DNA from: a virus
Taxonomy: Duplodnaviria; Caudoviricetes
Virus record (IMG/VR): IMGVR_UViG_3300020436_000012
Location: 1 to 61,533 of that record
Reading direction: 5' to 3' (one strand)
Length of the DNA: 61,533 nt
Position 1 is the first letter of the stretch; the number at the start of each line of letters is the position of its first letter. A program made the position numbers and the translations under genes. This document shows, piece by piece, positions 3,772-22,119 of the stretch. A model generated the notes under the pieces. That model was not told where the DNA came from, made no database searches, and was given only the letters and a program-made list of their open reading frames with translations.

Positions 3772-4082
3772 GCCAAGAGCAGTATCTCTTAATGTGCGAA
3801 CAAATGGGTTGGGAACCCAATCCAGAAGAGATGCCGCTAGAACCAAAAGATTTATCTTATGAAGCACAAGTTGCTTTAACTTTGTTTCAAGTGCTACCTG
3901 ATAAGATAGAAGGCATGAATGGAGTTTGGTTAGGAAAAGATTTTGCCGGTCTTGGAGACATTATGGAACTATATGGAATTGAAGGTAATAGAGATGCCTT
4001 TAATTTACTTTTGCATATAATAGCAGAAGCTTCTAAATTCTACGAACAACAACGCAAAGTTCAACAAGCGAGAAAAGGTTAA
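3768..4082 (+). CDS. Tail assembly chaperone C-terminal part (T of the G-T fusion)
   Basis: -1 frame relative to preceding gene; abuts tape measure start. Confidence 0.75.
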   Translation: MSQEQYLLMCEQMGWEPNPEEMPLEPKDLSYEAQVALTLFQVLPDKIEGMNGVWLGKDFAGLGDIMELYGIEGNRDAFNLLLHIIAEASKFYEQQRKVQQARKG

Positions 4083-7000: not shown

Positions 7001-8698
7001 ACTATAAGAGATAGAGCAGCACTAGAAAAAACTTCTCTCGAAAAACAACAGAAAGAATTACAAGCACAATTAGGTGGAGAAGGGGGTGGCTTAATAGCAA
7101 AAAGATTTGCTGCGCAAAGAGCTCTTGATCTAGCAAAAATTAAAGCTGATCAGGAAACCCGAGAATTAACGGCTAACCAGCTTGAAGCACAGGTAAAATT
7201 ACTTGATAAGCAACTAGACGGTTTCAGAGGACACGTTGAAGGGTTAGCCCGTATTTTGGCAGCTGACAGAATTGAAAGACAGCTTATGATGTCAAAACCA
7301 GGCGAGTTTGCGCAAGGGGGTAGAACTGTTGCACAAGAAAGAAAGTTTAGACTTGATCAACAAATGGAAGGCGTTGCAACAGAGATAAATAACATAATAG
7401 CGAAGATTGGTGGTCAAGGAGGTGGACTTACTAACCTTCTTAATACTATTAGGACCCGATCAGACGAGATTTTTAAACTACAACAAAAGAATGTTGGGGG
7501 TAAAACGGATGCTGCTGAGGCTGACGCACGTCTCAAAGCACAAGAAGCTCTCAATGACATACTTGAGAAAATAAAAAATAACGCAACCATCACAGCCACT
7601 GAAATTCAAAAATTAGATAATAAACTCAAAGAAGCTGGAATTAGCACCGCAAACTTAGCGGCTAAATTTGCAGATGCGGATAACGAAATGTTGCAAATTG
7701 CTAAAGATGTTGCTTCCTCTTTATCTGGTGGAATTGCTCAAGGACTACGAGATTTAAATGATGCCTTACTAGAGGGCACACTAACAATGGAGAACTTTAA
7801 AGAAGGATTTAAAGAAACCTTTATAAATATTGCAAAAGATATTCAAGGAAAAATATTTGAAAGAACTGTAGTCAAACCTGTAGAAAGCTTTATCAATGAA
7901 AAAGTGTTAGGAGCTTTTGGTTTTGCTCCAGATAAAAAGATTGAAGATGCTTTGGTTACCTCTACTGGCGGAACAGCCATGCTAGTAACTATGGCTCCGA
8001 GCGCTACATCTGTTGATCCTACTGAAATACTTAAAAAGCAATGTGATGCTGCCTCAGTAAAAGTTGATAATTTAGGAACGTCTTCAGACACAGGAGGAAA
8101 CTTCTTGATGGATATGTTTGGTAAAATTGGAGATGTCTTAGGTGATTTTGGAAGTGCTTTGTTAGAGGCAGGACAAGGAGTATTTGATTTTGTTGGAAGT
8201 CTATTCCAAGGGATTAGTGGTCTCGGTGGCGGTGGCGGCGGTGGCTTCTTTGGCAGCATCTTTAAAGGCTTTGGAAGCTTCTTTGGTAATATCTTTGGAG
8301 GAGGTGCAAGTGTAGCACCGACAGTAGGTGTTCCTGTTTCTCCTTCTATTCTACCTCCTGTTACAATGTTTGCAGCACGCGGAGGTTTAGTCAAAAGAAT
8401 GGCAGCAGGTGGGATGTTAAGAGATAGAATTCCTGCTATGTTAGAGCCAGGTGAATTTGTGATTCGTAAACCAATGGCAAAAGCTATTGGAGGGCCAGCG
8501 CTAAATGCAATGAACGCTCACGGAGCTATGGGCGGTCCTCAGAATGTAGTGGTTAACATGCATAACGAAGGAACTGCCCAAGAAACCTCAGAACAGCCTA
8601 GTGTCCAAGTTAGCCCCGAAACAATCATTGTAGATATTGTCACTAGGGATTTGAAAAACAACGGTCCAATTAGACAAGGAATTAGGAAATCACTATAA
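4082..8698 (+). CDS. Tape measure protein
   Basis: 1538 aa, Ala-rich coiled coil; T5 pb2-like N-terminus (REFSAQASGLGGLVSAYAGAAA, EPELLDELGI); C-terminal FAARGG...IPAMLEPGEFV. Confidence 0.92.
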   Translation: MAKKTKVQIAVETTGSKKAAKEIESVGRQQTRLGQASASAGREFSAQASGLGGLVSAYAGAAATIFALSAAFDALNRAARAEQTLAGVNALAAGIGESGPEVLSMIQRITKGQLSLVQAAELANLALSSGFSTEQLEGFTDVAMRASRALGRDLTDSFQRLVRGAVKLEPELLDELGIFTRIEPAAEAYAASVGKVASQLSRFEKRQAFANAVSEEGARKYADIDIEADTAAQSLEKLAATVSDLATNIGGVIARALAPFAEILTSPIAAIGLMGVLIKTVFGTALREATQRLTSFNANLRTSTDNLQDNLSSTKRIGQANLEFSEGMKGVTLNVARASAANEAEFKSLTKKAKAQTITTAETRRYNQIIEQEIAALNREKAALENSGKATAAKTARIGVLERRVKQFTIAQTAANARLKAFGPVAKAAGAAAIGFGKAVASAGKIALRALGIISMIVTTLSILITVGATVLDAFGWLDIVVEKTQKTVRFLKELLSITKEFNQAGRGIESVVENIDIPDTLTGKGIRPDGRIGKRNRKRSADSIRDAVEETVKAAPAAGFASADEFVKAFEKQLGIRSDSVTALARKLFKKIGQESQGTMRGRTLFAEAGGMTLKAADKVLEARRGELRVTNDILKNESLSLQKLGARFASAKEYNGLTEEDKERLEKRDKAQLSILQSQQLQVNFLQALRSGSATIEQLEQKRGAILAKIKNLLKEGGDTNKETAKILQKDLDNLNENAEVQIAILKTRKQIQETFSAQIKAADQLGKMNILTLEGDKASFKIAVSKKEQSAAQLTNLQQQFAAGKEFLDVERGRRDIGRELTDIEKQRAALARTAELAIVGQFQAIVEQSQKLKDNLDKQTLAYKNQITLLKQQNALQSADRSLKLSEQRLKTEQKSLANSVKTLQVERALAKARAEGADLDRQGRNKRATDIAAEFGDLLSPQRQRALELRIARSDLEALRKTVEAQKATIRDRAALEKTSLEKQQKELQAQLGGEGGGLIAKRFAAQRALDLAKIKADQETRELTANQLEAQVKLLDKQLDGFRGHVEGLARILAADRIERQLMMSKPGEFAQGGRTVAQERKFRLDQQMEGVATEINNIIAKIGGQGGGLTNLLNTIRTRSDEIFKLQQKNVGGKTDAAEADARLKAQEALNDILEKIKNNATITATEIQKLDNKLKEAGISTANLAAKFADADNEMLQIAKDVASSLSGGIAQGLRDLNDALLEGTLTMENFKEGFKETFINIAKDIQGKIFERTVVKPVESFINEKVLGAFGFAPDKKIEDALVTSTGGTAMLVTMAPSATSVDPTEILKKQCDAASVKVDNLGTSSDTGGNFLMDMFGKIGDVLGDFGSALLEAGQGVFDFVGSLFQGISGLGGGGGGGFFGSIFKGFGSFFGNIFGGGASVAPTVGVPVSPSILPPVTMFAARGGLVKRMAAGGMLRDRIPAMLEPGEFVIRKPMAKAIGGPALNAMNAHGAMGGPQNVVVNMHNEGTAQETSEQPSVQVSPETIIVDIVTRDLKNNGPIRQGIRKSL

Positions 8699-10335
8699 TG
8701 GCTACTTATCCCTCAGACGCAACAATTACAACAACTAGCTTTACCACTGTAGGTACCACTAACTATTCAAACACAGGAACTGTTAGAGAATTTAATCTAT
8801 CAACCACTGTAGAACATGTTGGTGAGGTAGTTGCGACAGTAGATGGAGTTATTCAAGATACTTCCACATATGTTACCTCTAATAGTGGTAATTCTATCAC
8901 TTTTGTGACGGCTCCAGACGCAACAGCTCTTGCTCTAAAAGTAATAACTCTTCCCTCTAGGTATAGAACAACTCGTGTTTTTCCTCAAGTTAGGTATGTA
9001 GACTATAATAACGCAGCAGCAGATATTCAAACCATAAACTCAAACGCTTACATAATCAATGGAGAAATACAAAACTTTCCTACACCTACACAAACCCAAG
9101 TTAATTCTAAAAACGATTTACTAGTAACAGTTTCTGGTGTTGAACAAACGCAAGATGCTTATGTTTTTCCCGCTTCTAACACAGAACCAGAAACTACTAC
9201 AGGCTCTATTTCACGAAATTTAGGTTCTGGCGGTATTACTATTGGACAATCTGCTGATACTATCTTGTTGTTAAATTTTGGAAAAAACTTCACTGATGAA
9301 AGTATCAAAGCTAGAGGAGCTGCTACAGTTTCTGGAGTAACACTAAGTAGTACTAAAAAGTATGGAAACTCTGCGGCTGCTTTTAACGCGGGAACTGACG
9401 TTATTAGTTTTACAGACAGTGATGATTTTTCTTACACAGGCTCTTTTAGTATAGAATGTTTCGCGAGGTTTGAAGACGCAAGTGCGGCTAACACTATATT
9501 TTCTCATCGCACAGATGATAATAACTTTGTTAAACTAAGTAGAATGGCTAATAATAAAATTCAGTGGACCGTAAAAGAAAGTGGCTCAACAGTTGCAGAT
9601 TTACAAGGTGGATCTATTAGTGCTGATACATTTGTTCATGTAGCTATTACTCACGACAGAAGTGAAGCACACTCAAGACTTTTTGTTAATGGGACAATGG
9701 TTCAAGAAGACAACGCCGTCAACTATTCGATAACTCCTACTGGAACTTTTGATATAGGCAGAATAAACACAACTAGTGCTGCTACTAGAGAAAATTTAAA
9801 AGGTTTCATAGACTCTTTTAGGTTTGTAAATGAGACAAGAATTTATGATAGGACTTTTGTGGTGCCTAGAACAGAACTCACTCGTATACATACTCCTTTG
9901 CAATCAAATGATACACTAGTAATAAGACATTTTGATAGTACCACTGAAACGTTTGATAGATTTACTTCTATGGCAGATAGAAAACCAGATAAAGGATTTT
10001 CAACTTCTACAGAGTTTGATGTAGTCCAGTTCACTTCTCAGGCTGGATATGAAAAACGTAGTTTAAGAAGTCGTCGTTCTAAACGTGATTTTGATATTTC
10101 ATATACTAACATATCAGGAGTGGAAAAACACGCAATTGAACAATTTTACAGGGCTAGAAATGGCGCATTTGAAACTTTCACTTTTGACTTGACACACATC
10201 AATGAAATTGGTAATATACAAGCAAGGTTTGATGGTCCTTTAGGAATTACTCACGTATTTTCTGATGCTTCAAATACTAGTCTACAAAATAATTATTACA
10301 CAGTGAAGTTTAATTTAAAAGAGGTTTACGACTGA
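8698..10335 (+). CDS. Distal tail protein (lambda gpM/DUF2460-like C-terminus) with LamG-like insert
   Basis: C-terminal QAGYEKRSLR...EQFYRARNGAFETFTF; central FSIECF...FVHVAIT...RLFVNG...GFIDSFRF LamG signature. Confidence 0.7.
   Translation: MATYPSDATITTTSFTTVGTTNYSNTGTVREFNLSTTVEHVGEVVATVDGVIQDTSTYVTSNSGNSITFVTAPDATALALKVITLPSRYRTTRVFPQVRYVDYNNAAADIQTINSNAYIINGEIQNFPTPTQTQVNSKNDLLVTVSGVEQTQDAYVFPASNTEPETTTGSISRNLGSGGITIGQSADTILLLNFGKNFTDESIKARGAATVSGVTLSSTKKYGNSAAAFNAGTDVISFTDSDDFSYTGSFSIECFARFEDASAANTIFSHRTDDNNFVKLSRMANNKIQWTVKESGSTVADLQGGSISADTFVHVAITHDRSEAHSRLFVNGTMVQEDNAVNYSITPTGTFDIGRINTTSAATRENLKGFIDSFRFVNETRIYDRTFVVPRTELTRIHTPLQSNDTLVIRHFDSTTETFDRFTSMADRKPDKGFSTSTEFDVVQFTSQAGYEKRSLRSRRSKRDFDISYTNISGVEKHAIEQFYRARNGAFETFTFDLTHINEIGNIQARFDGPLGITHVFSDASNTSLQNNYYTVKFNLKEVYD
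10189..10217 (+). promoter_or_regulatory. Gene-internal sigma70-like promoter upstream of the gpL-J block
   Basis: TTGACA-17 nt-TAATAT with TG extension. Confidence 0.5.
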
Positions 10336-12323
10336 TGACTACCCGCACATATGATTTCATCTTGACAGTTACGCAACCAGATGTAATCGCTGTAGGAGAT
10401 ACCATTCTTAGTAATGTAACAGCAACTAGCGGAGAAGTGGTAGGTGTTGATGCTGCTAATGCTAACATCAAAGTTAAAGTAGCTAATGTAAATCAAGAAT
10501 TTGTAGTTGGAGAAAATGCAAGGTCAGTATTTAACCTAGTAGCTTCAAACGCTATTTCTGTTGCTTACAGTAATAGTTCTTCAACCACTGTAAATGGTAA
10601 TGCTTTTATAATTAATGGAGCAACAAATACTTTTTCTTTGCCTTCTGAAGCCTTATCTTTGAGCAATGTTACTTTAGATAATTTTGATGTATTTATAAAT
10701 AATAGAATTATACCTAAACAAAACATTAATTTTCCTAGTGCAACTTTAGGAGATACAGGGTTTGATATTAATCCTATCTCTCCAGTAACTTCTGGAACTA
10801 CTTTTACAAAAAAAGGGTTAAGAGAGTCTCTCACTAATAACCCACAAAGAGTTGCGACTCTTTTAAGTGATTTAATACTGCCGACTATTGACGCTTCAAT
10901 AGTAGCAGACGAAACTACCGAATTTGAGTATGAAATTAATTATGATAATTGGATTTCTGCTAACGCTTTTGCTGTGGATGTTAGAGTAGACACTGGAAAT
11001 AATGAAACTATCCCTTTTACTGCTGCTGCTTTTAGTGAGCAGAAAAATGGTGCTAATTTTGCCATTACCAATATAATAAACTCTAACTATATTAGAGAAA
11101 GAAATGCTTTCGTTCAAAATCCTGTTGTTAGATTATATAGTATATATTACCCAGGTGAGTGGTACAAGCCCAATGAAGTAGGCAACCCAACAAATGATGG
11201 AGAGGGTAGAAGATGGCCTGACGGATTCCCTCTTAGGTTTGCAGAAGTTAGAGGAGACTTAAATGCTGATGTAACTTATAATGTAGAATTTGGAGGAGTT
11301 AACTATACTCCTATGCCTATTAATAGTGGAGGTTTAGAAATAGACTCGTCAGGTAAAATCAATGAAATAAGTATTGACATATCTAACTTTGATGGTTTAA
11401 TTACTCAAATAGCTGAAAATCCAGATTTAGTAGGTAATAACACTTCTAACGCGTGTTTTGCTGTCGTTAATGGTGAGGTGGTGACGGGCATTGACCCAAG
11501 AACGATTCCAACCGGAGCAACTTATGCAGAATCAGAGCATGCAACAGTTTTAGCAGCACAAAGAACAAAAGGTTTAAATTTTAACCAATCAGTTAGAGAC
11601 TCTTATGGGGTAGATAATGCTTCATTCACTATATCTACTACAGCAGACGTAGGCGGGGAGTGGAAAAGAGAAAAAATGGATTCTCGTGACCTGTTAGGCG
11701 CGGTAGTAGAAATTAGATCTACTTTTGCTAACTTTTTAGATTACTGGCCAGAGTATGCTAGGGTAGATGCGGCTTTTGCAAACGTGATCGAAGTTAGTAC
11801 TGCATTACCTTATAGAGTTGGGGACAACGTAAAAAGTAGAAGTAACAGTTTTATAGCAACTATAGATGCAATAGAAGAAAATAGGTTCATATTTACAAAT
11901 GCTGCATTAGAAATAACAGTAGGAGACCCGTTATTAATTGAAAATATTGATAGTGATGATGAGGCATATATAGAAGATGTATTTAAGATTGACTCTTTGT
12001 CTGGGTTAGACGAAAAAGTTGCCACTTTTTCTTTAACAAGTTGGTTACAATTCTTTAAACTTAGGGTTCCAAAAAGAAAGTATTATAAAAATACTTGTCA
12101 GTGGATTTATAAAGGAGAAGAGTGTCAGTATCCTGGCCCTGCAGGAGGCACCATCCCTGGGACTAGTTTAAGCGCAAACTCAAACCCGATTGCTGCGAAT
12201 AACCAAATCGCAGGAAGTGTTCAAGGAGATGAGTGTGGTAAAAGTTTTGAATCTTGTCAGATTAGAAATAACACTATTCATTTTGGAGGCTTTCCCGGCA
12301 CTGGTAGAACTATTCCTAAGTAA
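10335..12323 (+). CDS. Minor tail protein L-like (hub, Fe-S Cys motif), enlarged
   Basis: C-terminal CQWIYKGEECQY...DECGKSFESCQIR...HFGGFPG is the lambda gpL four-Cys motif. Confidence 0.85.
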   Translation: MTTRTYDFILTVTQPDVIAVGDTILSNVTATSGEVVGVDAANANIKVKVANVNQEFVVGENARSVFNLVASNAISVAYSNSSSTTVNGNAFIINGATNTFSLPSEALSLSNVTLDNFDVFINNRIIPKQNINFPSATLGDTGFDINPISPVTSGTTFTKKGLRESLTNNPQRVATLLSDLILPTIDASIVADETTEFEYEINYDNWISANAFAVDVRVDTGNNETIPFTAAAFSEQKNGANFAITNIINSNYIRERNAFVQNPVVRLYSIYYPGEWYKPNEVGNPTNDGEGRRWPDGFPLRFAEVRGDLNADVTYNVEFGGVNYTPMPINSGGLEIDSSGKINEISIDISNFDGLITQIAENPDLVGNNTSNACFAVVNGEVVTGIDPRTIPTGATYAESEHATVLAAQRTKGLNFNQSVRDSYGVDNASFTISTTADVGGEWKREKMDSRDLLGAVVEIRSTFANFLDYWPEYARVDAAFANVIEVSTALPYRVGDNVKSRSNSFIATIDAIEENRFIFTNAALEITVGDPLLIENIDSDDEAYIEDVFKIDSLSGLDEKVATFSLTSWLQFFKLRVPKRKYYKNTCQWIYKGEECQYPGPAGGTIPGTSLSANSNPIAANNQIAGSVQGDECGKSFESCQIRNNTIHFGGFPGTGRTIPK

Positions 12324-12742
12324 TGACAGATTATATAAAATATTTAGGTATAAAACACAATTATCAAAGTATAAATTGTATTACCTTAATTGAAAAAATT
12401 TATAAAGAAGAATTAAAATCTGATGTTTTTAAAAGCTTATGGGCACATTTAAACTTATCAGAAGGTAAACCCATAGAGGGTAGTAGGTGGAAGTTTAAAA
12501 TAACTTTAGAAAAAATACAAGAGTGGATTGTGGTAAACGCACAAGAGATTAAAATAACAGATATTCAAGAATATGATGTAATAATATTTAAATCTAAAAA
12601 AAATAGACCAATTCATTTTGGAATGTATATAGGAGAAAATAAATTTATTCACGTTGAAGAGGACTCTTCATCTATGATTTCGTCCTTAAACCAAACATGG
12701 AGAGAACAACTGCACAGTATATATAGACGTAAAGAGGGGTAA
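12323..12742 (+). CDS. NlpC/P60 family peptidase (gpK C-domain-like), copy 1
   Basis: NCITL Cys, DVIIF, IHFGMYIG His, FIH. Confidence 0.75.
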   Translation: MTDYIKYLGIKHNYQSINCITLIEKIYKEELKSDVFKSLWAHLNLSEGKPIEGSRWKFKITLEKIQEWIVVNAQEIKITDIQEYDVIIFKSKKNRPIHFGMYIGENKFIHVEEDSSSMISSLNQTWREQLHSIYRRKEG

Positions 12743-12743
12743 A

Positions 12744-13196
12744 ATGTGGTATGAAAAATATAAAGGATTTCCTTATAAACATTTAGGGAATTGTCCAAAA
12801 ACAGGAATAGATTGTTTAAATTTAATTAGGTTAGTATATAGAGATGAAAAAAATATTACAATTCCTTATTCAACCCAAGATTTTTGTAACATTGTAGATC
12901 AAGATTGGTATAATAAAATAGACACTAATCCTTTTTTACAATTTAAAAACTCTAAGCTAGGATGGGAAGAAGTATCATTAGATAAAGTTTTACCTTTTGA
13001 TGTAGCAATAATGAGTATTGGCTCTACAAATAAAATAAATCATTGCGCTTTATTAGTAGAAAAAAATAAACTTTTACAAACAATGATAAATAGAATTTCT
13101 TGGATATCTCCTTATGGAAATTACTATAAACAATACACTTTAGGACTTTTTAGGTGGAAAGGATTATCAGATGACTTTGTTTTCAACATTAATTGA
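12744..13196 (+). CDS. NlpC/P60 family peptidase, copy 2
   Basis: YKGFPY...GIDCLNL Cys, NHCAL His, third position Q. Confidence 0.8.
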   Translation: MWYEKYKGFPYKHLGNCPKTGIDCLNLIRLVYRDEKNITIPYSTQDFCNIVDQDWYNKIDTNPFLQFKNSKLGWEEVSLDKVLPFDVAIMSIGSTNKINHCALLVEKNKLLQTMINRISWISPYGNYYKQYTLGLFRWKGLSDDFVFNIN

Positions 13197-13539
13197 CGCC
13201 ATGGGAAAGCACGCACAAGCTGAGTACCCTAAAGAGTGTTGCGGCATTATTACAAAAGATTTTAAATATGTACCTGCTAAAAACATAAGTCCTTTGCCTA
13301 AAGAAACTTTTATTCTTGACCCAGAAATATTATGGGAATATGAAGACAACTGCTGGGGCATATTTCATTCCCATCCAGGAGAAGAAAACCCTATACCTAG
13401 TGAAGAGGACAAACAAGGAGCAGTATTTGAAGAATTTAAATTTATTGTAGGATTTAATAATAAATTTTATATCTATTGGTTTGAAAAAAAGATAGACGCA
13501 ATTAAATTTGACGAATTTAAGGAAGATTATTTAAAGTGA
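13171..13539 (+). CDS. JAB/MPN metallo-isopeptidase (gpK N-domain-like), stand-alone
   Basis: YPKECCGII and FHSHP...PSEED JAMM motif. Confidence 0.88.
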   Translation: MTLFSTLIDAMGKHAQAEYPKECCGIITKDFKYVPAKNISPLPKETFILDPEILWEYEDNCWGIFHSHPGEENPIPSEEDKQGAVFEEFKFIVGFNNKFYIYWFEKKIDAIKFDEFKEDYLK

Positions 13540-14207
13540 AAATTACGCTAGAATTTCATCGTTCTTTGTTGAAATACACTGATGGAGTAAAAACCCACAC
13601 AATAACTTGTGATGATTTTTCCTCTTTAGTTTCTGGTATTTCACATTTATTTCCAAATCTTGGAAACTATATTAAAAGAGTACGATCAGCAGAACTTTTA
13701 GAAAATTTATGTTTATTAGATAAAAATAAAAAGTTGATTAGATCTGAAGTATATGAATTTAATACTTTTAAAGAAAATCATTCAACATTGTTTATAGTTC
13801 CCATGATGGCAGGAGCTGGAGGTAAAAAAGGATCATTTTTACAAATTGCTATCGGCGTTGCACTAATTGCTGCTTCTTTTGCTTTTCCGCAATTAGCTGC
13901 CTTTGAACTTATGGGGACAACTCTTGGAAAAATGATGTTATCGACAGGTATAAACATGGTGTTAGGAGGAATAATGGGTCTGATGACAGAAACTCCTAAA
14001 CCTCCAGAAAAACAAATATCAGATAACCAAGAAAGAATAGACAATAATATGTTTTCTGGTCTTCAGAATACTACCTCAAGTCAAAACAATGTGCCTGTTA
14101 ATTATGGGGCACCTAGAGTATCTGGACAATTAGTGAGCGGATTTGTAAAAAGCTTAAACCACGGAAAGGGTGATCTTATAAAAGTATCTGAGAGCTTTGG
14201 GGCATGA
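13536..14207 (+). CDS. Tail assembly protein I-like (Ubl N-domain), copy 1
   Basis: IVPMMAGAGG followed by hydrophobic helices and FSGLQNT...VPVNYG, the gpI pattern. Confidence 0.8.
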   Translation: MKITLEFHRSLLKYTDGVKTHTITCDDFSSLVSGISHLFPNLGNYIKRVRSAELLENLCLLDKNKKLIRSEVYEFNTFKENHSTLFIVPMMAGAGGKKGSFLQIAIGVALIAASFAFPQLAAFELMGTTLGKMMLSTGINMVLGGIMGLMTETPKPPEKQISDNQERIDNNMFSGLQNTTSSQNNVPVNYGAPRVSGQLVSGFVKSLNHGKGDLIKVSESFGA

Positions 14208-14914
14208 TTACTTTAGTTATACATTCTAATCTAAAACCATATTTTAAAGATAAAAGAGAGTTATATATCAGTTGTAATGACTATCATTCTTTATTAAGTT
14301 TTATGATAAACTCTTTTCCAGAGTTTAACACGTTATTAAAAAAACTAAAAACTAATTTTAACAGAGACTTCTTTATTTTGGACAAAAATAAAAAAAGAGT
14401 TAACTTAGCAGACGTACAAGCTAATAAGAAATTAGAAAAAGATGCTGTTTACTATTTAGTGCCTTCTTTAATCGGTGCTGGAGGAAAAGGTGGTTTTATG
14501 CAGATAGCTCTTGGTGTCGCTATTATGGCACTGGCTTTTTACATGGCCCCCGCTGTGGTAGGAGCGATGGGGCCTACAATGGGAATGGGTACAACAGCTT
14601 TTACGGTAGGAACAATGGCGGTTACTTATACTAATATAGCAATGTTTGGAGCTTCAATGGCTTTACAAGGAATAATGAGTATAGTACAGAAACCCCCAAA
14701 TAGAGCACAACCAGGCGGTTCTACTTTTAATGACGATGGATCAAAAACTCAAAATAGTTTGTTTACTGGTTTAAATAATACTATCGAAGTAGGGTTTCCT
14801 GTTGGGATGAATTATGGAGCGACTAGAATTGGGGGGCAAATGATAAGTGGATTTGTAAAAAGTTTGAATCATGGTAAAAATGATATAATCAAAGTTTCGG
14901 AGAGTTTTGCATAA
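14204..14914 (+). CDS. Tail assembly protein I-like (Ubl N-domain), copy 2
   Basis: LVPSLIGAGG, FTGLNNT...PVGMNYG; C-terminus nearly identical to copy 1. Confidence 0.8.
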   Translation: MITLVIHSNLKPYFKDKRELYISCNDYHSLLSFMINSFPEFNTLLKKLKTNFNRDFFILDKNKKRVNLADVQANKKLEKDAVYYLVPSLIGAGGKGGFMQIALGVAIMALAFYMAPAVVGAMGPTMGMGTTAFTVGTMAVTYTNIAMFGASMALQGIMSIVQKPPNRAQPGGSTFNDDGSKTQNSLFTGLNNTIEVGFPVGMNYGATRIGGQMISGFVKSLNHGKNDIIKVSESFA

Positions 14915-17900
14915 TGAGTGTATATAAAAAATATACCAATGTTAGTGGAGGGTCTGTCCCTATCATATCTGGAAGCAAAGGAGGCTGTTTTCCAGCAGGA
15001 TCTTTAGTGTCTACTCCCCGTGGAGAAATACCTATTGAAGACATAAAACTTAATGATAAAGTATATTGTTTTGATGATAACGATAAGCGTTGGGTATCTT
15101 TTGTAGAAAAGACTTGGGAGCATGTTCCTTCTGAAACAGTAGGTTATATATTAACTATTACTCACGAAAAAGGTAAATTGCGGGTTACAGATAATCATTA
15201 TTTGTATGATGAAAACAATGAATATAAAGAAGCTAAAGACTGGAAAGTTGGAGAATATTTAACTTCAGAGGACAACGATTTTAGTAAGATTTTATCAATT
15301 AAGAGTGAAGATTATTTAAACGAGACAGTATATAATTTAACAGTTAATACTTATCACAACTACATTTGTCAAGGAATTCGCCTGTCTAATAAAGGCGGAG
15401 GAGGAAAAGGAGGGGGCGGAGCGCGTGCGGCTGCAACAGAATCTCCAAATACTTTATTTTCTACCGACATTTTGTTTTTAACTGTTGCGTTGGGTGAAGG
15501 CCCTATTTATAGAATTAATCCTAATGGTCCCCAAGATATTGAGATTAACGAAGGAGCTATTGATGACTTAATTAATATTGATGGAGACGGAGAAGAGAAC
15601 AACGAAGTATTTAAAACTTTAACAACTACAGGAACTCTAACTCAAGAGCCTTTAGCTGTGTTTGGTGCTGAGACTATCACTCCTCAAAATTTAAATAACC
15701 CTGTAAGTTTAAAAAATGGTAATGTGGAAGGTATTCCAAAAGCGTCAGTTACTTTACAAAATACTAGCGCAAAAGATTGGGACAAGATAAGATTTAACTT
15801 TGTTATTCAAGGACTTCAAAAATCTGATGGAAATGGTAACGTTACAGGTTCTAGTGTTTCTATTACTATTCAAGTTTTTGATCGAACAGGTACGACTTTA
15901 ATCGCTGAATTAGGAGAAGATAGTAGAACAATTAGCGGAAAAACTAACACGAGATTTAAATTTCAAAGAGATATTTTAATTCCAGAAGCTTCTAGATCGC
16001 TTGATGGATATAAATTTACGATTGAGAAAACTTCTTCTGATAGTGATTCTAATAGAACGCAAGACAACGTTCAGTTTATTGGATGGGATGAGATAGAGTT
16101 TGATGATATGGCATATCCTAGAACTTCTTTAATTGGTTATGCTATCAAATCTTTTAATGAGCATGAAGGTAGAGTTCCTACATTTACCTCTTTAATAAAA
16201 GGGCTTTTAGTAAAAGTTCCCTCTAATTATAATCAACCTATTTTATCTAATGGAGAAATAGATTGGAGAGAATTAGAAATTCCCGAAACAGGCACTTCGA
16301 CTATTGGTGGAGAATCAACACAAATTGGATATACGCAAAAAGGATATCAATTACAAACTACAGTAGAAGGTGTAGCTGAAAAGAAAATTAGTCTCATTAG
16401 TGGTAGCGCAGGCACTGGCTATGCCTCAGATGCTACTCCTTCTGTTACTATTTCAGGAGGAGGAGGTAGTGGCGGTGCTGCTACTGCAAATATAGGAACT
16501 AACAAAGTCTCTAGTTTTACTTTAACAAATGCGGGTAGTGGGTATACCTCTGCTCCTACGGTAACAGTTGCAGCCCCAGCGGCGGTAACCTTTAATGGAG
16601 CTTCCGCAGTTAATGATAGCTCTGATACTATAACAATTACAGGACATCCTTTTGCTACAGGAGATCAAGCAACTTACAGCGCTGGTGGAGGTACTGCTAT
16701 TTCTGGAACAGGTGTTAGTACTGCGTCTGGAGGGGTGTTCATCATTAGTGTTGATGCTAATACGGTAAAACTAGCAACCAGTTCGGTAAACTCACTCTCA
16801 GGAACTGCTATTGATATAACATCAGGATCTGGGTCTAGCCACACACTAACTGGCATGACAGCTACCGCTACGGCTACACTAACTACAGAACAATTTAATG
16901 CAAACCCGATAATTTATCAAGGTGTTTGGGACGGCACTTTTGTATACTCTTGGACTCAAAACCCGATTTGGATTGTTTATGATATTTTAACAAACCGAAC
17001 TTATGGTCTAGGAATAGATGAAGAAAATATAGATAAGTTTATGTTTTATAAAGTTGCACAATATTGTGATGCCTGTGATTTTACTACAGGCGCTTTTATT
17101 GGGGTGTCTGGTTTTGCAGACGGAACTTTTAGACATAAACCTAGAGGATTATTTACTACTGTTAGAGAAATACTTGTAGGACTAGATAGAGGTGTTCAAG
17201 TAAAAGAACGTAGATTTATGAATGATATTAGTATACAAGAAGATGTTCAAGTGATGGATACTATTAATAAACTCACTTCAACATTTAGAGGACTATTATA
17301 CTACGCAGGAGGTAAAATTACATTAAATATTGATATACCAGAAGATACTCCTGTTGCTGTTTTTAATGACGCTAATATTAGAAAAGACACTTTAAAATTC
17401 TCAGGCACTAAAGAAAGTGATATTATAACAGGAGTAGACGTATCTTATATTGAACCTGCGAATCACTTTAAAAGAGAAGTGGTAAGAATTGATGATCAGG
17501 AAGCTTTAAGAGATAGAAATCAGATAGAAAATATTCAAACAGTTGATTTAGCTGGGGTCACTCGTAGAAGTCAGGCATCTAGATATGGACAATATTTAAT
17601 TGCTTCTTCTAAATATTTAAGAAGACAAGTAGAGTTTCAGTGTGGGGTAGATGCCCTTAATCTAGTCGTCGGAGACATTATAACTGTCGCTACTAAGCAA
17701 GGGGGAATTGCTTATGGATTCGGAGGAAAAGTAGCTGCAGATTCTCAAATAACAGGTGGTGGTGTAGCAAATGCTAATATTCTTTTAGAACATTTTACTA
17801 GCCCTGCTATTACTGCTAGCACTTTTACTGGTAATACTAATCCTCTCGCAGTGAGAATAATTGGTATGGAATCTGATAGAATTGACTACTATTTAGTAGA

Positions 17901-20900
17901 TAACGTTTCTTTTACTGCGAACGCTACAGGTAATGCAGACTCAGGCATAGACTTAATAGAGATTGAAACTATAGCAAGATATAACTATAGTACAAAAGCT
18001 TTTGTGAACGGGAGAGACTTTTTAGCTAATAATGTTCCTAAAAAAGGAGACCTTTGGACTTTTGGAGAAACTGGAGGTGACCCAGATAATTTTTATACCG
18101 CTCAGAATGATCGGCTTTTTAAAATTACCACTATATCAAGAGGAACAGAAGAAGACGTGACTATAACGGGAATTGAGTATATTTCTAACGTATATGTTGA
18201 CTCTGATTCTCTAATTGCTTATGTGCCTGTTAGATATGATGACACCGTGTCTAGTTTGACCCCTCCTCCTTCTCCAGAACTTAATTTATCTTCTAGGCCT
18301 AGAGAGTTAGGGGATGGTTCTGTTACAAACGACTTGTTAGTTGATGTATTTACTGATCAAACAGGGTACCCTCTTTTTGTAGAGACTGATTTATCAATCG
18401 CTAGACCTGATTTTAATTTTACTCCATACTTAACTTCCAATGCAAATACAGGAGCAACAACCTTTACTGCATCTAATGTTTCTCCCTTAGCTAATGGGGA
18501 AGTATCTATCTTGTCAGGTAAAAACGGTTTTAAAACAAACACAGGAGAAATAAAACTACTAGTGGACGCAGTGACAAATCCTGATGTAACAGATACTTCC
18601 AATGGAAATGTGCAATTTAGTATTAAATCTTTAAATCTAGCTTTTGATATTAATCAAATGAAACACGTTTTAGAAGTTAATGATGGTGGTGGAGCTGTCG
18701 CTAACGTTTTAAAAGGTTTCGATAGAGTTTCTTTTGACTTAAACCAAAAACTTACTACAGGAACAGGATTATTAGGTTTTGTTGATCATGGCACTAGACT
18801 CACCCAATATAGTGCTAATATTGTTGCTCATTCGACAACAATGGATGCAGGAACAATAAAAATACAAAATGAACACTCTGGAGAATCAACGCTACTTGAT
18901 CAACTTCCTACTCCTCCGTTTTTTGTTTCTATTAATCAACTGGTAGATACTAGGTTTATGGATAATAGGTCTTTATATATTTCTGGTAGTAGTTTTACTG
19001 AAATACACAGTAATGTCCTTACAGGAAATTTAACATCTAGTTCAAGCTTTATACAACCTTTAGTAAGAGGTGCTCCTTTTAAAGAAGCAGTGAGAGTGTT
19101 CATAGATGGAATAGAAAAAACTACAGGAGACTGGAATTTTACTAGCTCGGCCAACGATTCAATAACTGTTCCCGGACTAAGCACCGAAGCTACAATTAGA
19201 GTAGAGGCAGAGCATTATACTGTTCCTGCAGTCGAGCCAGGGGATAATTTACAGTTTCATTCTGGAAATGTTTATTCTATAGTTAACGCGTCATATTCTA
19301 CAGACAGCGCCGATTTTAACGCATCGTTAACAGCTAATAGTATGTATAGGGTAACTTTAGGTTCTAAATTACGTTCTAACACAAGAGGAACTGTAGCTGT
19401 TAATATTAGTCCTGATCCTATAGGAACAACTAATAATGTTGTTGGTAGAAGTTTTACTTTTGATTATAACAAAACACTATTCCCAGGTACGTTCTCCCTA
19501 TCTAATAATGCTATTTATTCTGTGTTAACTCCAACAACTTTTGACGGATTTCAAATTCCTAACGATAGACTAGTAAGAGATATTGATCCCGGACTTTATG
19601 TATTAAGAGCGCAAAACGTTAACCAAGCAGGTAGAAGAAGTCCTATTGTGACCGAATCTATTTTAATTAATGAAATACCTATCCAAAGAGTAGAAAATTT
19701 ACTTATTACAGAGTCTTTATATATTGAACAGTCTGTTGGTGCTGTAACAAGAGTAACAGTAGAATTTGATCATCTTCAAAACCAAAGTGTTACTGACTAC
19801 GAACTCTCTTATAAGTTAGGAGGTACTGCCGCAGACCTAACCTCTTTTAATACAGTTAAGCTTCCCGCTACTGGGGTGGATACTGACGGTAAAATGAGAT
19901 TTACTATTAACAATGTTGATCGTGGACTAACCTCTAGTGTTAATAATATAACAGTGCGAGTTACTGCTTTAAATAAATCAATTAAAGGAGTAACCTTTGA
20001 AAAAAGCCAACCCATTTTAGGTAAACAAATACCTCCACAAAATATTCAAAACTTTAGTGTTTCTCAATTAGGAGAAAATATTCACTTATTCTGGGCGTAT
20101 GTTACTAATGCAGACGGCTCGTTGATTGACCCAGATTTAAGAGATATTGTTATTAAAAGAACACAAGGTATAGTGCAACCTGCTGATTTTGCTTCTGCTT
20201 TTGTTAATGCACCAGAGTTTATTGTAGTTAGTTCTGGGTCGACCAGGAAAGTGGCTGCTATTGACACGTTTGGAACATTTACTTATTTAGCTAAAACTCG
20301 TGATACTAGTGGTAACTTAAGCACAGATGTAGTTGGTGTAACTTTTACCTCAGTAAAATTAGCCGAGTTGTTCTTATTACAGTCTTATAGTGAAGATAAT
20401 CCAGGAGGTAACGTCATAACAGGAGTGCCTCTAACTAACCGTGCCGAATTTAACTTTCCAAGTTTGGCAAATTCAAATACGGCAGGTATTTCGATAGCTG
20501 CACAACCTACTTCGTTAGTTGATAATGCTAACGGTACTGCTGTAGGATTTTCTGTGATAAGTGGTAGTCCTACAGATATTTTAGCTACAGGAAGTCAATC
20601 AATATATCAAACACAAGTAAGAGATATAGGCGCTTTAACATCTGTTAGTTTAACTGCTAACATACAAGGCACAGCAACTACCTCTACAGACTGGAATACT
20701 CTACACCGAGATATAGCCACAGGAGTTACAGAAGTTAGTAGTGACAACACCATACTGAAAGATACAGGATTAGGCGGTTCTGAGGGAGTAGGCACAGTTC
20801 TTGGATTTGGTAACACTGTTGCAGCGATCCATACCGCTGACATCCCAAACCAGACCCTAGTGAGTGGTGGAGCCACCGGAAATGTTTTTGCGATTTGGAA

Positions 20901-22119
20901 TGACGGACAGTATTCAACTACGTTTTCAGACGGAGCAGGAGTTAAATCAATCACCGCGATAACACAAGCAGAGCCAGGTATTATAACTGTATCTGCTGAT
21001 CACTTTTTAGCAGCAACCACTCCCGCAACAAGAAGTATTATACATGACGTAATAGGTATGACACAATTAAATAGTAGAGAAGTTTATGTAACTAGAAGCA
21101 CCTCAAATACTACTCTTCAACTATTTAATTATACAGCTAAATCTGGTGTTACTATTTCAGCAGTCACAAAAGCAAACCCTGCAGTTGTAACTGCCTCTGG
21201 TCATGGTCTGAGCGATGGAGACAAAATAATTATTCAAGGGGTAGTGGGCATGACTGAACTAAACGGTCTTGTTTTCACTGTCGCTAATAAAACTACAAAT
21301 ACTTTTGAGCTTTCAGGAACAAATAGCAGTTCTTTCACTACTTACTCCTCTGGGGGTGTAGTTCACGAAGCTATTAATACTTCATCAGGACACTCAGCCT
21401 ACTCTAGTGGAGGGGTTGTAGACTTAGGAGACTATTCTAATGCTAATTCTTACGCTTTAATTGCTAGTGTGATTGCCGCAGATCAAATTAAATTAGGAAA
21501 AGTATACCACGCTAACGGGGCATCAACAGGAGCTAATGCATTTGCCAACTTGACAACTGTTGCGAGTTCATATAAACTAGTAGATCTAAATCAGTTTGCT
21601 GACTCTTCTTCTGCGGCGACCACATTCTTAGGAGATTCTAGTGCTTTGTCAAGGGTTACAGAAATTAGAACTTCTGAGTCTGACCCGTTTTTTGCTAATG
21701 GTAATGTAAATATTAGTACGTTTACTGGAACTTCTGATGATAGATTCACTACTTTTAGTACTGGATCAAGATTAGCTAGATTTTTCCAAATCAGAGAAAT
21801 TATAACAAACGCAAAACCAACTGAAACTAATTTTACGTTAGACACTTTTGAATATACGGTAGATAAACCAACTCAAGAGTTTAGAACTAGAGTTACTTTT
21901 GCAGGAACTAGCGATACTGGAGGAAATACTGCAGTAGACTATTCTTCTGCCGGATTTATTGAACCCCCGTTTATAACTATGACCCCTGTGGGAGCAATAG
22001 GAAAAATTGCAACAGTTATAGGCTCAACAAATACAGGAGCAAATATTAATGTCGTTAACTCATCTGATCAAGCACCTTCTACAGGTGTAGTGTTAGATTT
22101 TGTGGCACAAGGAATTTAA
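14914..22119 (+). CDS. Central tail fibre/tip attachment protein J-like with N-terminal Hint domain
   Basis: 2401 aa; LGEGPI, YPRTSLIG, GLLVKVPSNY, WDGTFVYSWTQNPIW, GVTRRSQASR gpJ motifs; FN3-like segments. Confidence 0.9.
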   Translation: MSVYKKYTNVSGGSVPIISGSKGGCFPAGSLVSTPRGEIPIEDIKLNDKVYCFDDNDKRWVSFVEKTWEHVPSETVGYILTITHEKGKLRVTDNHYLYDENNEYKEAKDWKVGEYLTSEDNDFSKILSIKSEDYLNETVYNLTVNTYHNYICQGIRLSNKGGGGKGGGGARAAATESPNTLFSTDILFLTVALGEGPIYRINPNGPQDIEINEGAIDDLINIDGDGEENNEVFKTLTTTGTLTQEPLAVFGAETITPQNLNNPVSLKNGNVEGIPKASVTLQNTSAKDWDKIRFNFVIQGLQKSDGNGNVTGSSVSITIQVFDRTGTTLIAELGEDSRTISGKTNTRFKFQRDILIPEASRSLDGYKFTIEKTSSDSDSNRTQDNVQFIGWDEIEFDDMAYPRTSLIGYAIKSFNEHEGRVPTFTSLIKGLLVKVPSNYNQPILSNGEIDWRELEIPETGTSTIGGESTQIGYTQKGYQLQTTVEGVAEKKISLISGSAGTGYASDATPSVTISGGGGSGGAATANIGTNKVSSFTLTNAGSGYTSAPTVTVAAPAAVTFNGASAVNDSSDTITITGHPFATGDQATYSAGGGTAISGTGVSTASGGVFIISVDANTVKLATSSVNSLSGTAIDITSGSGSSHTLTGMTATATATLTTEQFNANPIIYQGVWDGTFVYSWTQNPIWIVYDILTNRTYGLGIDEENIDKFMFYKVAQYCDACDFTTGAFIGVSGFADGTFRHKPRGLFTTVREILVGLDRGVQVKERRFMNDISIQEDVQVMDTINKLTSTFRGLLYYAGGKITLNIDIPEDTPVAVFNDANIRKDTLKFSGTKESDIITGVDVSYIEPANHFKREVVRIDDQEALRDRNQIENIQTVDLAGVTRRSQASRYGQYLIASSKYLRRQVEFQCGVDALNLVVGDIITVATKQGGIAYGFGGKVAADSQITGGGVANANILLEHFTSPAITASTFTGNTNPLAVRIIGMESDRIDYYLVDNVSFTANATGNADSGIDLIEIETIARYNYSTKAFVNGRDFLANNVPKKGDLWTFGETGGDPDNFYTAQNDRLFKITTISRGTEEDVTITGIEYISNVYVDSDSLIAYVPVRYDDTVSSLTPPPSPELNLSSRPRELGDGSVTNDLLVDVFTDQTGYPLFVETDLSIARPDFNFTPYLTSNANTGATTFTASNVSPLANGEVSILSGKNGFKTNTGEIKLLVDAVTNPDVTDTSNGNVQFSIKSLNLAFDINQMKHVLEVNDGGGAVANVLKGFDRVSFDLNQKLTTGTGLLGFVDHGTRLTQYSANIVAHSTTMDAGTIKIQNEHSGESTLLDQLPTPPFFVSINQLVDTRFMDNRSLYISGSSFTEIHSNVLTGNLTSSSSFIQPLVRGAPFKEAVRVFIDGIEKTTGDWNFTSSANDSITVPGLSTEATIRVEAEHYTVPAVEPGDNLQFHSGNVYSIVNASYSTDSADFNASLTANSMYRVTLGSKLRSNTRGTVAVNISPDPIGTTNNVVGRSFTFDYNKTLFPGTFSLSNNAIYSVLTPTTFDGFQIPNDRLVRDIDPGLYVLRAQNVNQAGRRSPIVTESILINEIPIQRVENLLITESLYIEQSVGAVTRVTVEFDHLQNQSVTDYELSYKLGGTAADLTSFNTVKLPATGVDTDGKMRFTINNVDRGLTSSVNNITVRVTALNKSIKGVTFEKSQPILGKQIPPQNIQNFSVSQLGENIHLFWAYVTNADGSLIDPDLRDIVIKRTQGIVQPADFASAFVNAPEFIVVSSGSTRKVAAIDTFGTFTYLAKTRDTSGNLSTDVVGVTFTSVKLAELFLLQSYSEDNPGGNVITGVPLTNRAEFNFPSLANSNTAGISIAAQPTSLVDNANGTAVGFSVISGSPTDILATGSQSIYQTQVRDIGALTSVSLTANIQGTATTSTDWNTLHRDIATGVTEVSSDNTILKDTGLGGSEGVGTVLGFGNTVAAIHTADIPNQTLVSGGATGNVFAIWNDGQYSTTFSDGAGVKSITAITQAEPGIITVSADHFLAATTPATRSIIHDVIGMTQLNSREVYVTRSTSNTTLQLFNYTAKSGVTISAVTKANPAVVTASGHGLSDGDKIIIQGVVGMTELNGLVFTVANKTTNTFELSGTNSSSFTTYSSGGVVHEAINTSSGHSAYSSGGVVDLGDYSNANSYALIASVIAADQIKLGKVYHANGASTGANAFANLTTVASSYKLVDLNQFADSSSAATTFLGDSSALSRVTEIRTSESDPFFANGNVNISTFTGTSDDRFTTFSTGSRLARFFQIREIITNAKPTETNFTLDTFEYTVDKPTQEFRTRVTFAGTSDTGGNTAVDYSSAGFIEPPFITMTPVGAIGKIATVIGSTNTGANINVVNSSDQAPSTGVVLDFVAQGI
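14986..15390 (+). other. Hint (intein-like/BIL) domain, 135 aa, no homing endonuclease
   Basis: Starts CFPAGSLV, has VTDNH block B, ends VYNLTV..HNY...RLSN; next residue is Lys. Confidence 0.88.

Follow-up and report, generated by a model that had tools for sequence, protein, structure and literature searches.

The 61,533-nucleotide uncultured-virus record IMGVR_UViG_3300020436_000012 (Duplodnaviria; Caudoviricetes), hereafter the window, meaning the whole 61.5-kb stretch that was analyzed (CheckV completeness 55%, G+C ~34%), encodes a lambda-gpJ-type tail-tip protein of 2401 amino acids (aa; 14914-22119, + strand) that carries a 135-aa Hint domain close to its N-terminus. Sequence profiles and the modeled fold indicate that this Hint is of the bacterial intein-like (BIL) type, and it is very probably a self-excising domain of some kind. 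By analogy with reported BILs, the outcome that we favor, with a probability of about 0.45, is cleavage only, such that the Hint would remove itself without canonical splicing and the thioester formed at its upstream junction would be hydrolyzed.

The J-like open reading frame (ORF), whose start codon overlaps the stop of the ORF upstream when the letters are read, opens with a 24-aa leader or propeptide (14914..14985, +) that ends in Lys-Gly-Gly. The tail of this leader (aa 15-24, 14956-14985, +) reads hydrophobic-Pro-x-Ile-x-Gly-x-Lys-Gly-Gly, and Gly24 is the -1 residue. The mini-Hint, of the A-type BIL or PT-HINT kind as judged by Pfam, a profile search of the Protein Data Bank (PDB), AlphaFold2 and Foldseek, spans aa 25-159 (14986..15390, +) and has no endonuclease insert. 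Direct reading of the codons on this strand gives Cys25 (tgt, 14986-14988) as Hint position 1, Ser158 (tct, 15385-15387) as the penultimate residue, Asn159 (aat, 15388-15390) as the terminal residue and Lys160 (aaa, 15391-15393) as the +1 residue, while the family alignment places block B at Thr92-Asp-Asn-His95 (15187-15198, +) and His148 serves as the block-F landmark. Lys160 opens what would be, in the mature tail-tip protein, an N-terminal arm rich in Gly and Lys (15391..15435, +), made up of two Lys-Gly4 units and then an Ala-rich stretch and delimited by translation and by alignment to the first lambda J residues; the gpJ-like tail-tip or central fiber body follows (15436..22119, +, from Pfam and lambda J homology). 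An earlier note, made from the letters of this DNA, had described a 135-aa Hint with Cys1, a penultimate Ser, a terminal Asn and Lys at +1, and codons and translation agree with it to the residue. The same note called the TxxH motif intact, which holds for Thr92-Asp-Asn-His95; T-I-T-H at aa 82-85 was considered as block B and dropped, since the alignment supports the copy ten residues later. Its remark that the stretch after the Hint resembles a gpJ N-terminus is likewise borne out: lambda J aligns from its residue 2 to residue 164 of the window protein onward (BLASTP E 4e-10), FNIII-A_GpJ (aa 281-391) and Phage-tail_3 (aa 782-928) domains are found by Pfam, and the gene lies downstream of gpL, gpK and gpI genes, as expected of a gpJ-type protein.

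The assignment to the BIL type draws on profile and fold searches. A Pfam Hint-type match covers aa 21-161 of the J-like protein. With the 169-aa N-terminus as query, PT-HINT (PF07591) reaches 35 bits (cut-off 27.7; E 2e-8) and is covered from profile position 1 to 131 of 137, Hint scores 33.3 bits against 29.7, while Intein_splicing, at 35.0 against 35.8, falls below its cut-off. PT-HINT matches 23 of 23 relatives and has the lowest best E among Pfam families (2.4e-15). When a family profile of 23 members was searched against PDB sequences, the first match was a bacterial intein-like domain (2lwy_A, E 1.1e-19, over the whole domain) and the second was BIL2 (6tmm/6y75, E ~1e-18), followed by the gp41-1 intein (1e-13) and then other inteins. 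The AlphaFold2 model has a mean predicted local distance difference test score (pLDDT) of 78.5, with residues 25-160 confident and the leader and Gly arm below 50. Foldseek probability is 1.00 and template modeling (TM) scores are 0.72-0.87 to BIL, intein and Hedgehog Hint structures, which places the model within the HINT-superfamily fold. BIL2 (6Y75/6TMM) is the top structure (E 5e-10, TM score 0.72/0.82, identity ~20%), 2LWY reaches a TM score of 0.87 normalized to the target, both BIL structures lie at 0.78-0.87, and DnaB, gp41-1 and other mini-inteins rank below them. Block-A Cys25 and block-B Thr92-x-x-His95 are invariant in 23 of 23 relatives, as is each of the block-B Thr, Asn and His; in Hint numbering, the invariant positions of the family alignment are C1, F2, V26, H46, T68, N70, H71, I102, V120 and N135. 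No further Hint or intein was found in the 61.5-kb window besides this single match.

What distinguishes this Hint from a canonical intein is its downstream flank, which was read across relatives. Viral contigs scanned with the post-Hint region gave 80 loci, of which 78 have a readable N-terminus (L079 and L081 lack the anchor), so that 79 N-termini including that of the window could be compared; these overlap with a second set of 121 clusters of J-like proteins, and the two counts are not additive. The Hint is present in 37 of the 79 N-termini and in 45 of the 121 clusters (query included), always at the same Gly|Lys site. The -1 residue is Gly in all 37 N-termini and all 45 clusters, and Cys1 and the terminal Asn are kept in 37 of 37 N-termini. 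At +1 there is Lys (33 N-termini; 26 clusters) or Gly (4 N-termini; 19 clusters) and never Cys, Ser or Thr. The earlier note had observed that canonical splicing needs a +1 nucleophile and that none is present; with Lys160 here and Lys or Gly in all relatives, canonical splicing is excluded and a canonical (class 1) intein is ruled out. The penultimate residue is His in 26 N-termini and 36 clusters and Ser in 11 N-termini and 9 clusters, Ser-Asn being the ending of the window's clade, which consequently does not share the His-Asn of class 1 inteins. Hint-less alleles, which the note had proposed to look for, account for the other 42 of the 79 N-termini, and all 42 are continuous across the site (...Gly-(Ala/Ser)-Lys-Gly-Gly-Lys-Gly-Gly...). 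The idea that Lys at +1 co-evolved with the Hint in J is not supported, as the Hint-less alleles show Lys at the equivalent place.

The distribution of the domain is that of a long-standing resident. The 24 distinct Hints form seven or eight lineages that are 29-46% identical to one another, and the next 300 aa of J in the relatives are 50-63% identical to the window. On an extein tree of this 300-aa stretch, drawn from those N-termini (78 of 79) that continue for 250 aa or more downstream and holding 56 distinct rows, no more than 3 changes are needed to account for Hint presence (bootstrap 2-3), against a shuffled mean of 18.7 with none of 500 shuffles as low, and Hint clusters coincide with extein clades. 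Because the changes are few and the Hint clades mirror the extein clades, the presence of the Hint is, as judged from these trees, old and mostly a matter of vertical inheritance. Pairwise ratios of nonsynonymous to synonymous substitution (dN/dS) for the Hint are 0.03-0.15 in the window's clade and 0.11-0.34 in a second clade, with similar values for the adjacent 135 J codons, and these codon comparisons indicate that the Hint is under purifying selection. Its third-position G+C content (0.207) lies within that of the flanks (0.18-0.25); with this flank-like composition and the mirrored clades, there is no sign of recent horizontal acquisition. Searches of the region by blastn and tblastn against 50,697 phage records gave no match, and the relatives are all metagenomic records.

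A wider view was obtained by searching a Hint-only profile against 1.84 billion representative proteins, which gave 48,837 matches at E <= 0.001 and 288 at E <= 1e-30. Junctions were read in the best 150 proteins and the window protein (151 in total, re-scored locally), a whole-protein ranking that favors multi-Hint proteins; 138 of these 151 best-ranked proteins contain 288 full-length domains. Among the 288, Gly stands at -1 in 174, a terminal His-Asn closes 276, and the +1 residue is Lys in 191, Gly in 24, Ala in 17, Cys in 16, Ser in 10 and Thr in 4 (Cys, Ser and Thr together 30). Lys at +1 is the rule in the wider subfamily and is therefore not peculiar to the window. The contexts comprise J-like proteins, bacterial tandem-Hint proteins and proteins in which the Hint comes late, as in pre-toxin architectures. 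Three J-like proteins (P0129, P0138, P0149) have two tandem N-terminal Hints with a spacer of 7-10 residues between them, Gly with one Lys; identity within the pairs is 53%, 54% and 79%, and Cys1, block B and His-Asn are intact in each copy. As a side observation, P0139, P0122, P0123 and others, which are apparently bacterial, carry a tandem run of three to five BIL Hints behind a hydrophobic N-terminus, with spacers of only Lys-Gly or Lys-Gly3, followed by a membrane stretch and a Tim44-like domain.

The same Hint type is found in gpI-like proteins of other phages. In the 439-aa gpI-like protein P0264, a profile search places the Hint after the tail of the ubiquitin-like (Ubl) domain and a Gly run and ahead of a Gly4-Lys linker and TAPI-C. 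A search with the C-terminal part of P0264 returned 32 close proteins, 27 of them (434-455 aa) with PT-HINT and 5 (291-299 aa) without; the four Hint-less ones that were read (P0294 was excepted) are all continuous across the site. A Ubl domain ending in Gly directly before Cys1, a feature of the ciliate BUBL locus, is thus present in these gpI-like proteins. One locus (L087) has a module of gpM-like, gpL-like, JAB+NlpC/P60, gpI+Hint (5001-6317) and J-like (6321-11312) genes, and in its J-like protein another Hint (aa 688-821), flanked by Thr|Cys...His-Asn|Arg, follows an N-extension of 690 aa. Non-splicing-type Hints thus recur in lambda-type tail-tip proteins of uncultured phages. The Ubl-Hint architecture of P0264, P0274-P0301 and L087 5001-6317 is, as a separate observation, like that of the BUBL locus.

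The question is how a Hint of this type would act in the J-like protein. We propose a precursor that runs from the leader (aa 1-24) through the BIL-type Hint (aa 25-159) and the Gly/Lys arm to the J body, in which the Hint would be a single-turnover self-processing module that skips canonical trans-esterification. In the first step, Cys25 would attack the Gly24 carbonyl in an N-S acyl shift, with Thr92 and His95 helping, to give a Gly24 thioester. In the second, cyclization of Asn159 would cut the Asn159|Lys160 bond and release the J body, whose N-terminus would then be a Lys-Gly4 arm beginning four residues ahead of the point aligned with the lambda J start. In the third, water would mainly resolve the thioester, and the leader, or the remnant of it left by the phage JAB peptidase, would be discarded. 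The N-terminal arm of J may be a region that is trimmed anyway, and for this reason a non-splicing Hint could be tolerated there. The residues for an N-S acyl shift and for Asn cyclization are present and the Hint is dispensable in sister alleles; we infer firing at both junctions and a thioester resolved by water instead of an amine.

The rationale for favoring cleavage over splicing has three parts. The first is the reported behavior of BILs, whose products are described as predominantly cleaved, with the A-type prone to C-terminal cleavage, in two reviews (PMC7664689, PMC5874633); the earlier note's statement that BIL-type Hints mainly cleave agrees with these texts, and the window Hint belongs with BILs by both profile and fold. 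The second is that elsewhere the Hint lies between separable modules, namely the gpI Ubl tail and TAPI-C (27 clusters) or the 690-aa N-extension and the J body, and the third is the position of the lambda J start. Several observations weigh on the other side. Cys1 is conserved, and the leader motif is kept equally in Hint-bearing and Hint-less alleles; if only Asn cyclization mattered, both could decay. In the diverged tandem Hints (53-54%) both copies are intact, and under cleavage only the upstream copy would be dispensable. The Hint-less alleles translate the leader joined to the arm, as a ligation product would restore it, and the replacement of the penultimate His by Ser in the window's clade could slow Asn cyclization. 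Judging by their titles, Dassa et al. 2004 and Aranko et al. 2013 reportedly describe splicing of A-type BILs that lack a +1 nucleophile. A figure legend in one review states that A-type BILs 'can splice completely' (PMC5874633).

These observations bear on the strongest alternative, which we consider somewhat unlikely, namely splicing by aminolysis. Here the freed alpha-amine of Lys160 would attack the Gly24 thioester and make a peptide bond between leader and arm, the Hint would be a neutral or selfish passenger, and the product would equal the Hint-less allele. The restriction of presence and absence to a single site whose flanks are identical (...Lys-Gly-Gly | Lys-Gly-Gly-Gly...), joint conservation of Cys1, the terminal Asn and the leader motif, a -1 Gly without exception in both samples that would leave the thioester unhindered, the intact diverged tandem copies and the legend just quoted are all in keeping with it. 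However, cleavage is described as predominant for BILs (PMC7664689), and the like Hint with Thr/Arg flanks between large modules is in a place where ligation seems pointless. There is also no homing endonuclease, and the ~3 gain or loss events inferred leave little sign of mobility. Cleavage, re-ligation by aminolysis and transfer to Lys cannot be distinguished in silico.

The leader itself looks, in models, like a mimic of a Ubl tail that docks into the phage JAB. In 23 Hint-bearing relatives, leader residues I18, G20 and G24 are invariant and P16 is conserved in at least 90%, and in 10 Hint-less relatives P14, I16, G18, K20 and G21 are invariant. The last strand and tail of the gpI Ubl domain read hydrophobic-Pro-x-h-h-Gly-(Ala/Gly)-Gly-Gly-Lys in lambda gpI and in every locus examined; in the gpI-like protein encoded immediately upstream of J (protein a, 14204..14914, +) the tail is Pro-x-h-h-Gly-Ala-Gly-Gly-Lys-Gly-Gly, and this motif is shared with the J leader. 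The leader has no fold of its own (AlphaFold2 pLDDT ~34), so that the Gly-ended Ubl domain that precedes Cys1 at the BUBL locus has no counterpart directly ahead of the Hint in the J-like protein, and lambda J has no leader. According to a prediction by Iyer et al. 2006, the gpK JAB would cut gpI after its Ubl domain, at the final Gly (PMC1779556), and no test of this predicted cut was found in the literature searched. The JAB was modeled in complex with aa 1-40 of a Hint-less J, the L046 JAB and J sequences heading the two alignments. The complex scored 0.71, a mark that 58 of 80 solved complexes attain, as do 2 of 110 mismatched pairs, and the best of three controls scored 0.00; runs agree in at least 81% of contacts, and partner pLDDT is at least 46. 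This calibration is only rough, because the modeled pair used its own alignments and a Zn ion rode along. JAMM enzymes have been solved with ubiquitin tails, and the pass may reflect likeness to such complexes rather than real binding.

In the model, leader residues 13-22 of the Hint-less allele contact JAB residues including E22, H66, H68, S77 and D80, which are invariant in 11 sequences as a Glu, His-x-His, Ser and Asp set that we take to be the JAMM catalytic residues. Leader residues 17-19, equivalent to Ser19-Ser21 of the window, lie nearest H66, S77 and D80, about four residues before Cys25. If accepted as it stands, the model would have the leader read as a Ubl tail and would put any JAB cut about four residues before Cys25; the candidate idea that the Hint sits exactly at the JAB scissile bond is not supported, as the modeled catalytic contacts lie upstream by this distance. 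The idea that the Hint replaces the JAB peptidase was rejected, since every locus with 2 kb or more of upstream DNA has a JAB ORF, 25 of 25 with the Hint and 26 of 26 without it.

This leader raises the possibility of a different fate for the thioester, in which it would pass to a Lys side chain as in the BUBL/BIL2 system. The epsilon-amine of Lys160, Lys165 or a Lys in another tail protein would then accept the Gly-Gly-ended leader through an isopeptide link without E1 or E2, and the JAB would be the matching peptidase or isopeptidase. The earlier note had raised such a discharge onto a lysine, and also that the domain may act as an autocleaving assembly timer. There is precedent for the transfer in BIL2, which makes an isopeptide bond to Lys epsilon-amines (PMC8616854) and is among the top matches; Lys is the commonest +1 residue of the best-ranked subfamily proteins, the leader bears the gpI Ubl tail motif and is modeled in the JAB cleft, and other phages have the Hint after a complete gpI Ubl domain in a Ubl-BIL architecture. 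Nevertheless, the N-flank in the window is only 24 aa with no Ubl fold, and because Lys also stands in Hint-less alleles and Gly stands at +1 in 19 of the 45 Hint-bearing clusters, Lys160 is not established as the nucleophile. We regard this transfer as improbable. Equally doubtful is its broader form, in which the tail-tip module would run its own E1/E2-free ubiquitin-like chemistry, with the Hint-made Gly thioester of a Ubl-type tail passed to a Lys of the Lys-Gly4 repeats or of another tail protein and the JAB trimming or de-conjugating the product. If it were true, the tail donor would be the J leader here and a whole gpI Ubl domain in other phages, and a function would be assigned to the Ubl and JAB components of lambda-type tail assembly, which have long lacked an explanation.

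Some active inteins lack the penultimate His, and it is very improbable that the Hint is dead or very slow and kept as a structural N-terminal domain, its C-terminal cleavage disabled by the His-to-Ser change: the Ser158 state recurs throughout the window's clade and purifying selection would be expected of a structural domain too, but Cys1, the block-B Thr, Asn and His and the terminal Asn are invariant, the window's clade included, and close Hint-less relatives mean that the tail can do without the domain.

Comparison with known systems helps to place the cleavage reading. Like the Clostridium thermocellum BIL (2LWY), the window Hint is a mini-Hint with Cys1 and the block-B His and without a +1 nucleophile, and most of its relatives end in His-Asn as that BIL does; it differs in that the host is a conserved phage structural protein with one fixed site and Hint-less alleles, in the Ser-Asn of the window's clade and in the Gly-Gly | Lys-Gly3-4 flanks. 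BILs are reported in variable regions of bacterial proteins (PMC5874633), in contrast to the fixed site seen here in clades that share 50-63% extein identity. The structures 6Y75 and 6TMM are of BIL2 from the BUBL locus of Tetrahymena thermophila, where a Ubl is conjugated to Lys without E1, E2 or E3 (the CASP14 paper, PMC8616854). BIL2 is the second-best match by sequence and the top Foldseek match, but it lies between two Ubl domains, whereas here a 24-aa leader with a Ubl-like tail and a tail-tip protein flank the Hint. The PT-HINT of polymorphic toxins (PF07591) is matched end to end by profile; in those toxins a C-terminal portion is released, the Pfam line itself saying only 'Pretoxin HINT domain'. 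In the window, by contrast, there is no toxin module, the part released would be a structural tail protein, and the Hint is N-terminal rather than near the C-terminus. Class 1 mini-inteins (gp41-1, 6QAZ) share the fold, blocks A, B, F and G, the terminal Asn, precise insertion and the existence of intein-less alleles. They differ in that Lys or Gly at +1 here makes trans-esterification impossible, in a match weaker than that of the BILs and in the location of this Hint in a low-complexity linker instead of a conserved active site.

The domain type, the missing +1 nucleophile and both non-canonical outcomes are already known. The main settings in which BIL-type Hints are described are variable proteins of bacteria, precursors of toxins and a polyubiquitin-like locus of a ciliate (PMC8616854, PMC5874633). 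In the literature searched, with subscription journals and supplements outside its scope, we found no account of gpJ- or gpI-type proteins that carry a BIL-type Hint, of a fixed site with Hint-less alleles or of a Ubl-tail-like J leader. What the window adds is a BIL-type Hint in an essential structural protein of a phage, at a site that is both fixed and polymorphic, beside a JAB and four residues after a motif common to the gpI-type Ubl domain. The Hint-bearing and Hint-less alleles form a natural set for probing the effect of a non-splicing Hint on its host protein, and the site is a second, independent pointer to the Gly tail of the gpI Ubl domain as a processing site, as predicted in 2006 (PMC1779556). 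Compact Hints of 129-135 aa with Gly/Lys flanks might serve as self-cleaving or ligating tags. If plain cleavage is what occurs, the case would be a tidy but modest addition to BIL biology.

The gene context, from Pfam searches of the neighboring ORFs, is a lambda-type tail-tip module. Upstream of the J-like gene lie in order a long ORF with no Pfam match, DUF2460/Laminin_G, Phage_tail_L, two NlpC/P60 ORFs, Prok-JAB and two gpI-like ORFs. The long ORF (1538 aa, 4082-8698) precedes the gpM- and gpL-like genes, and from its place we would expect it to encode the tape measure protein. The NlpC/P60 ORFs (12323-12742 and 12744-13196) are followed by a stand-alone JAB/MPN metallopeptidase corresponding to part of gpK (13171..13539, +; Prok-JAB E 1.6e-11), so that the equivalent of gpK (12323-13539) is divided over three ORFs. 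With its gpL-like, NlpC/P60, JAB, two gpI-like and J genes, the window has the parts of lambda I (Ubl and TAPI-C) and K (JAB and NlpC/P60), and the Ubl tail motif is common to lambda gpI and the window; lambda J, in contrast, has neither the leader nor the Hint.

The two gpI/TAPI-like proteins are paralogues. Protein a (236 aa), characterized by translation, BLASTP and AlphaFold2, has an N-terminal Ubl beta-grasp, a hydrophobic stretch and TAPI-C, and matches lambda gpI (as P0270, BLASTP E 3e-10). Protein b (223 aa, 13536..14207, +), identified by translation and phmmer across loci, has a like architecture and tail motif. Residues 1-97 of protein a are modeled as a beta-grasp with a pLDDT of 82.9, and the best Foldseek matches are CysO, MoaD, SAMP1 and Urm1, a coherent list with weak E (best 2.9e-3) and TM scores of 0.59-0.68. 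Among loci with at least 2 kb upstream, two gpI-like ORFs occur in 14 of 25 Hint-bearing loci and one occurs in 26 of 26 Hint-less loci. In the distal part of the J-like protein, Pfam finds an E1_FCCH-like domain (PF16190, aa 2090-2152, 21181-21369, +, E 3.9e-14). This match to a domain of ubiquitin-activating enzymes is also present in many relatives with and without the Hint, and probably represents no more than a small beta-barrel module in the distal fiber.

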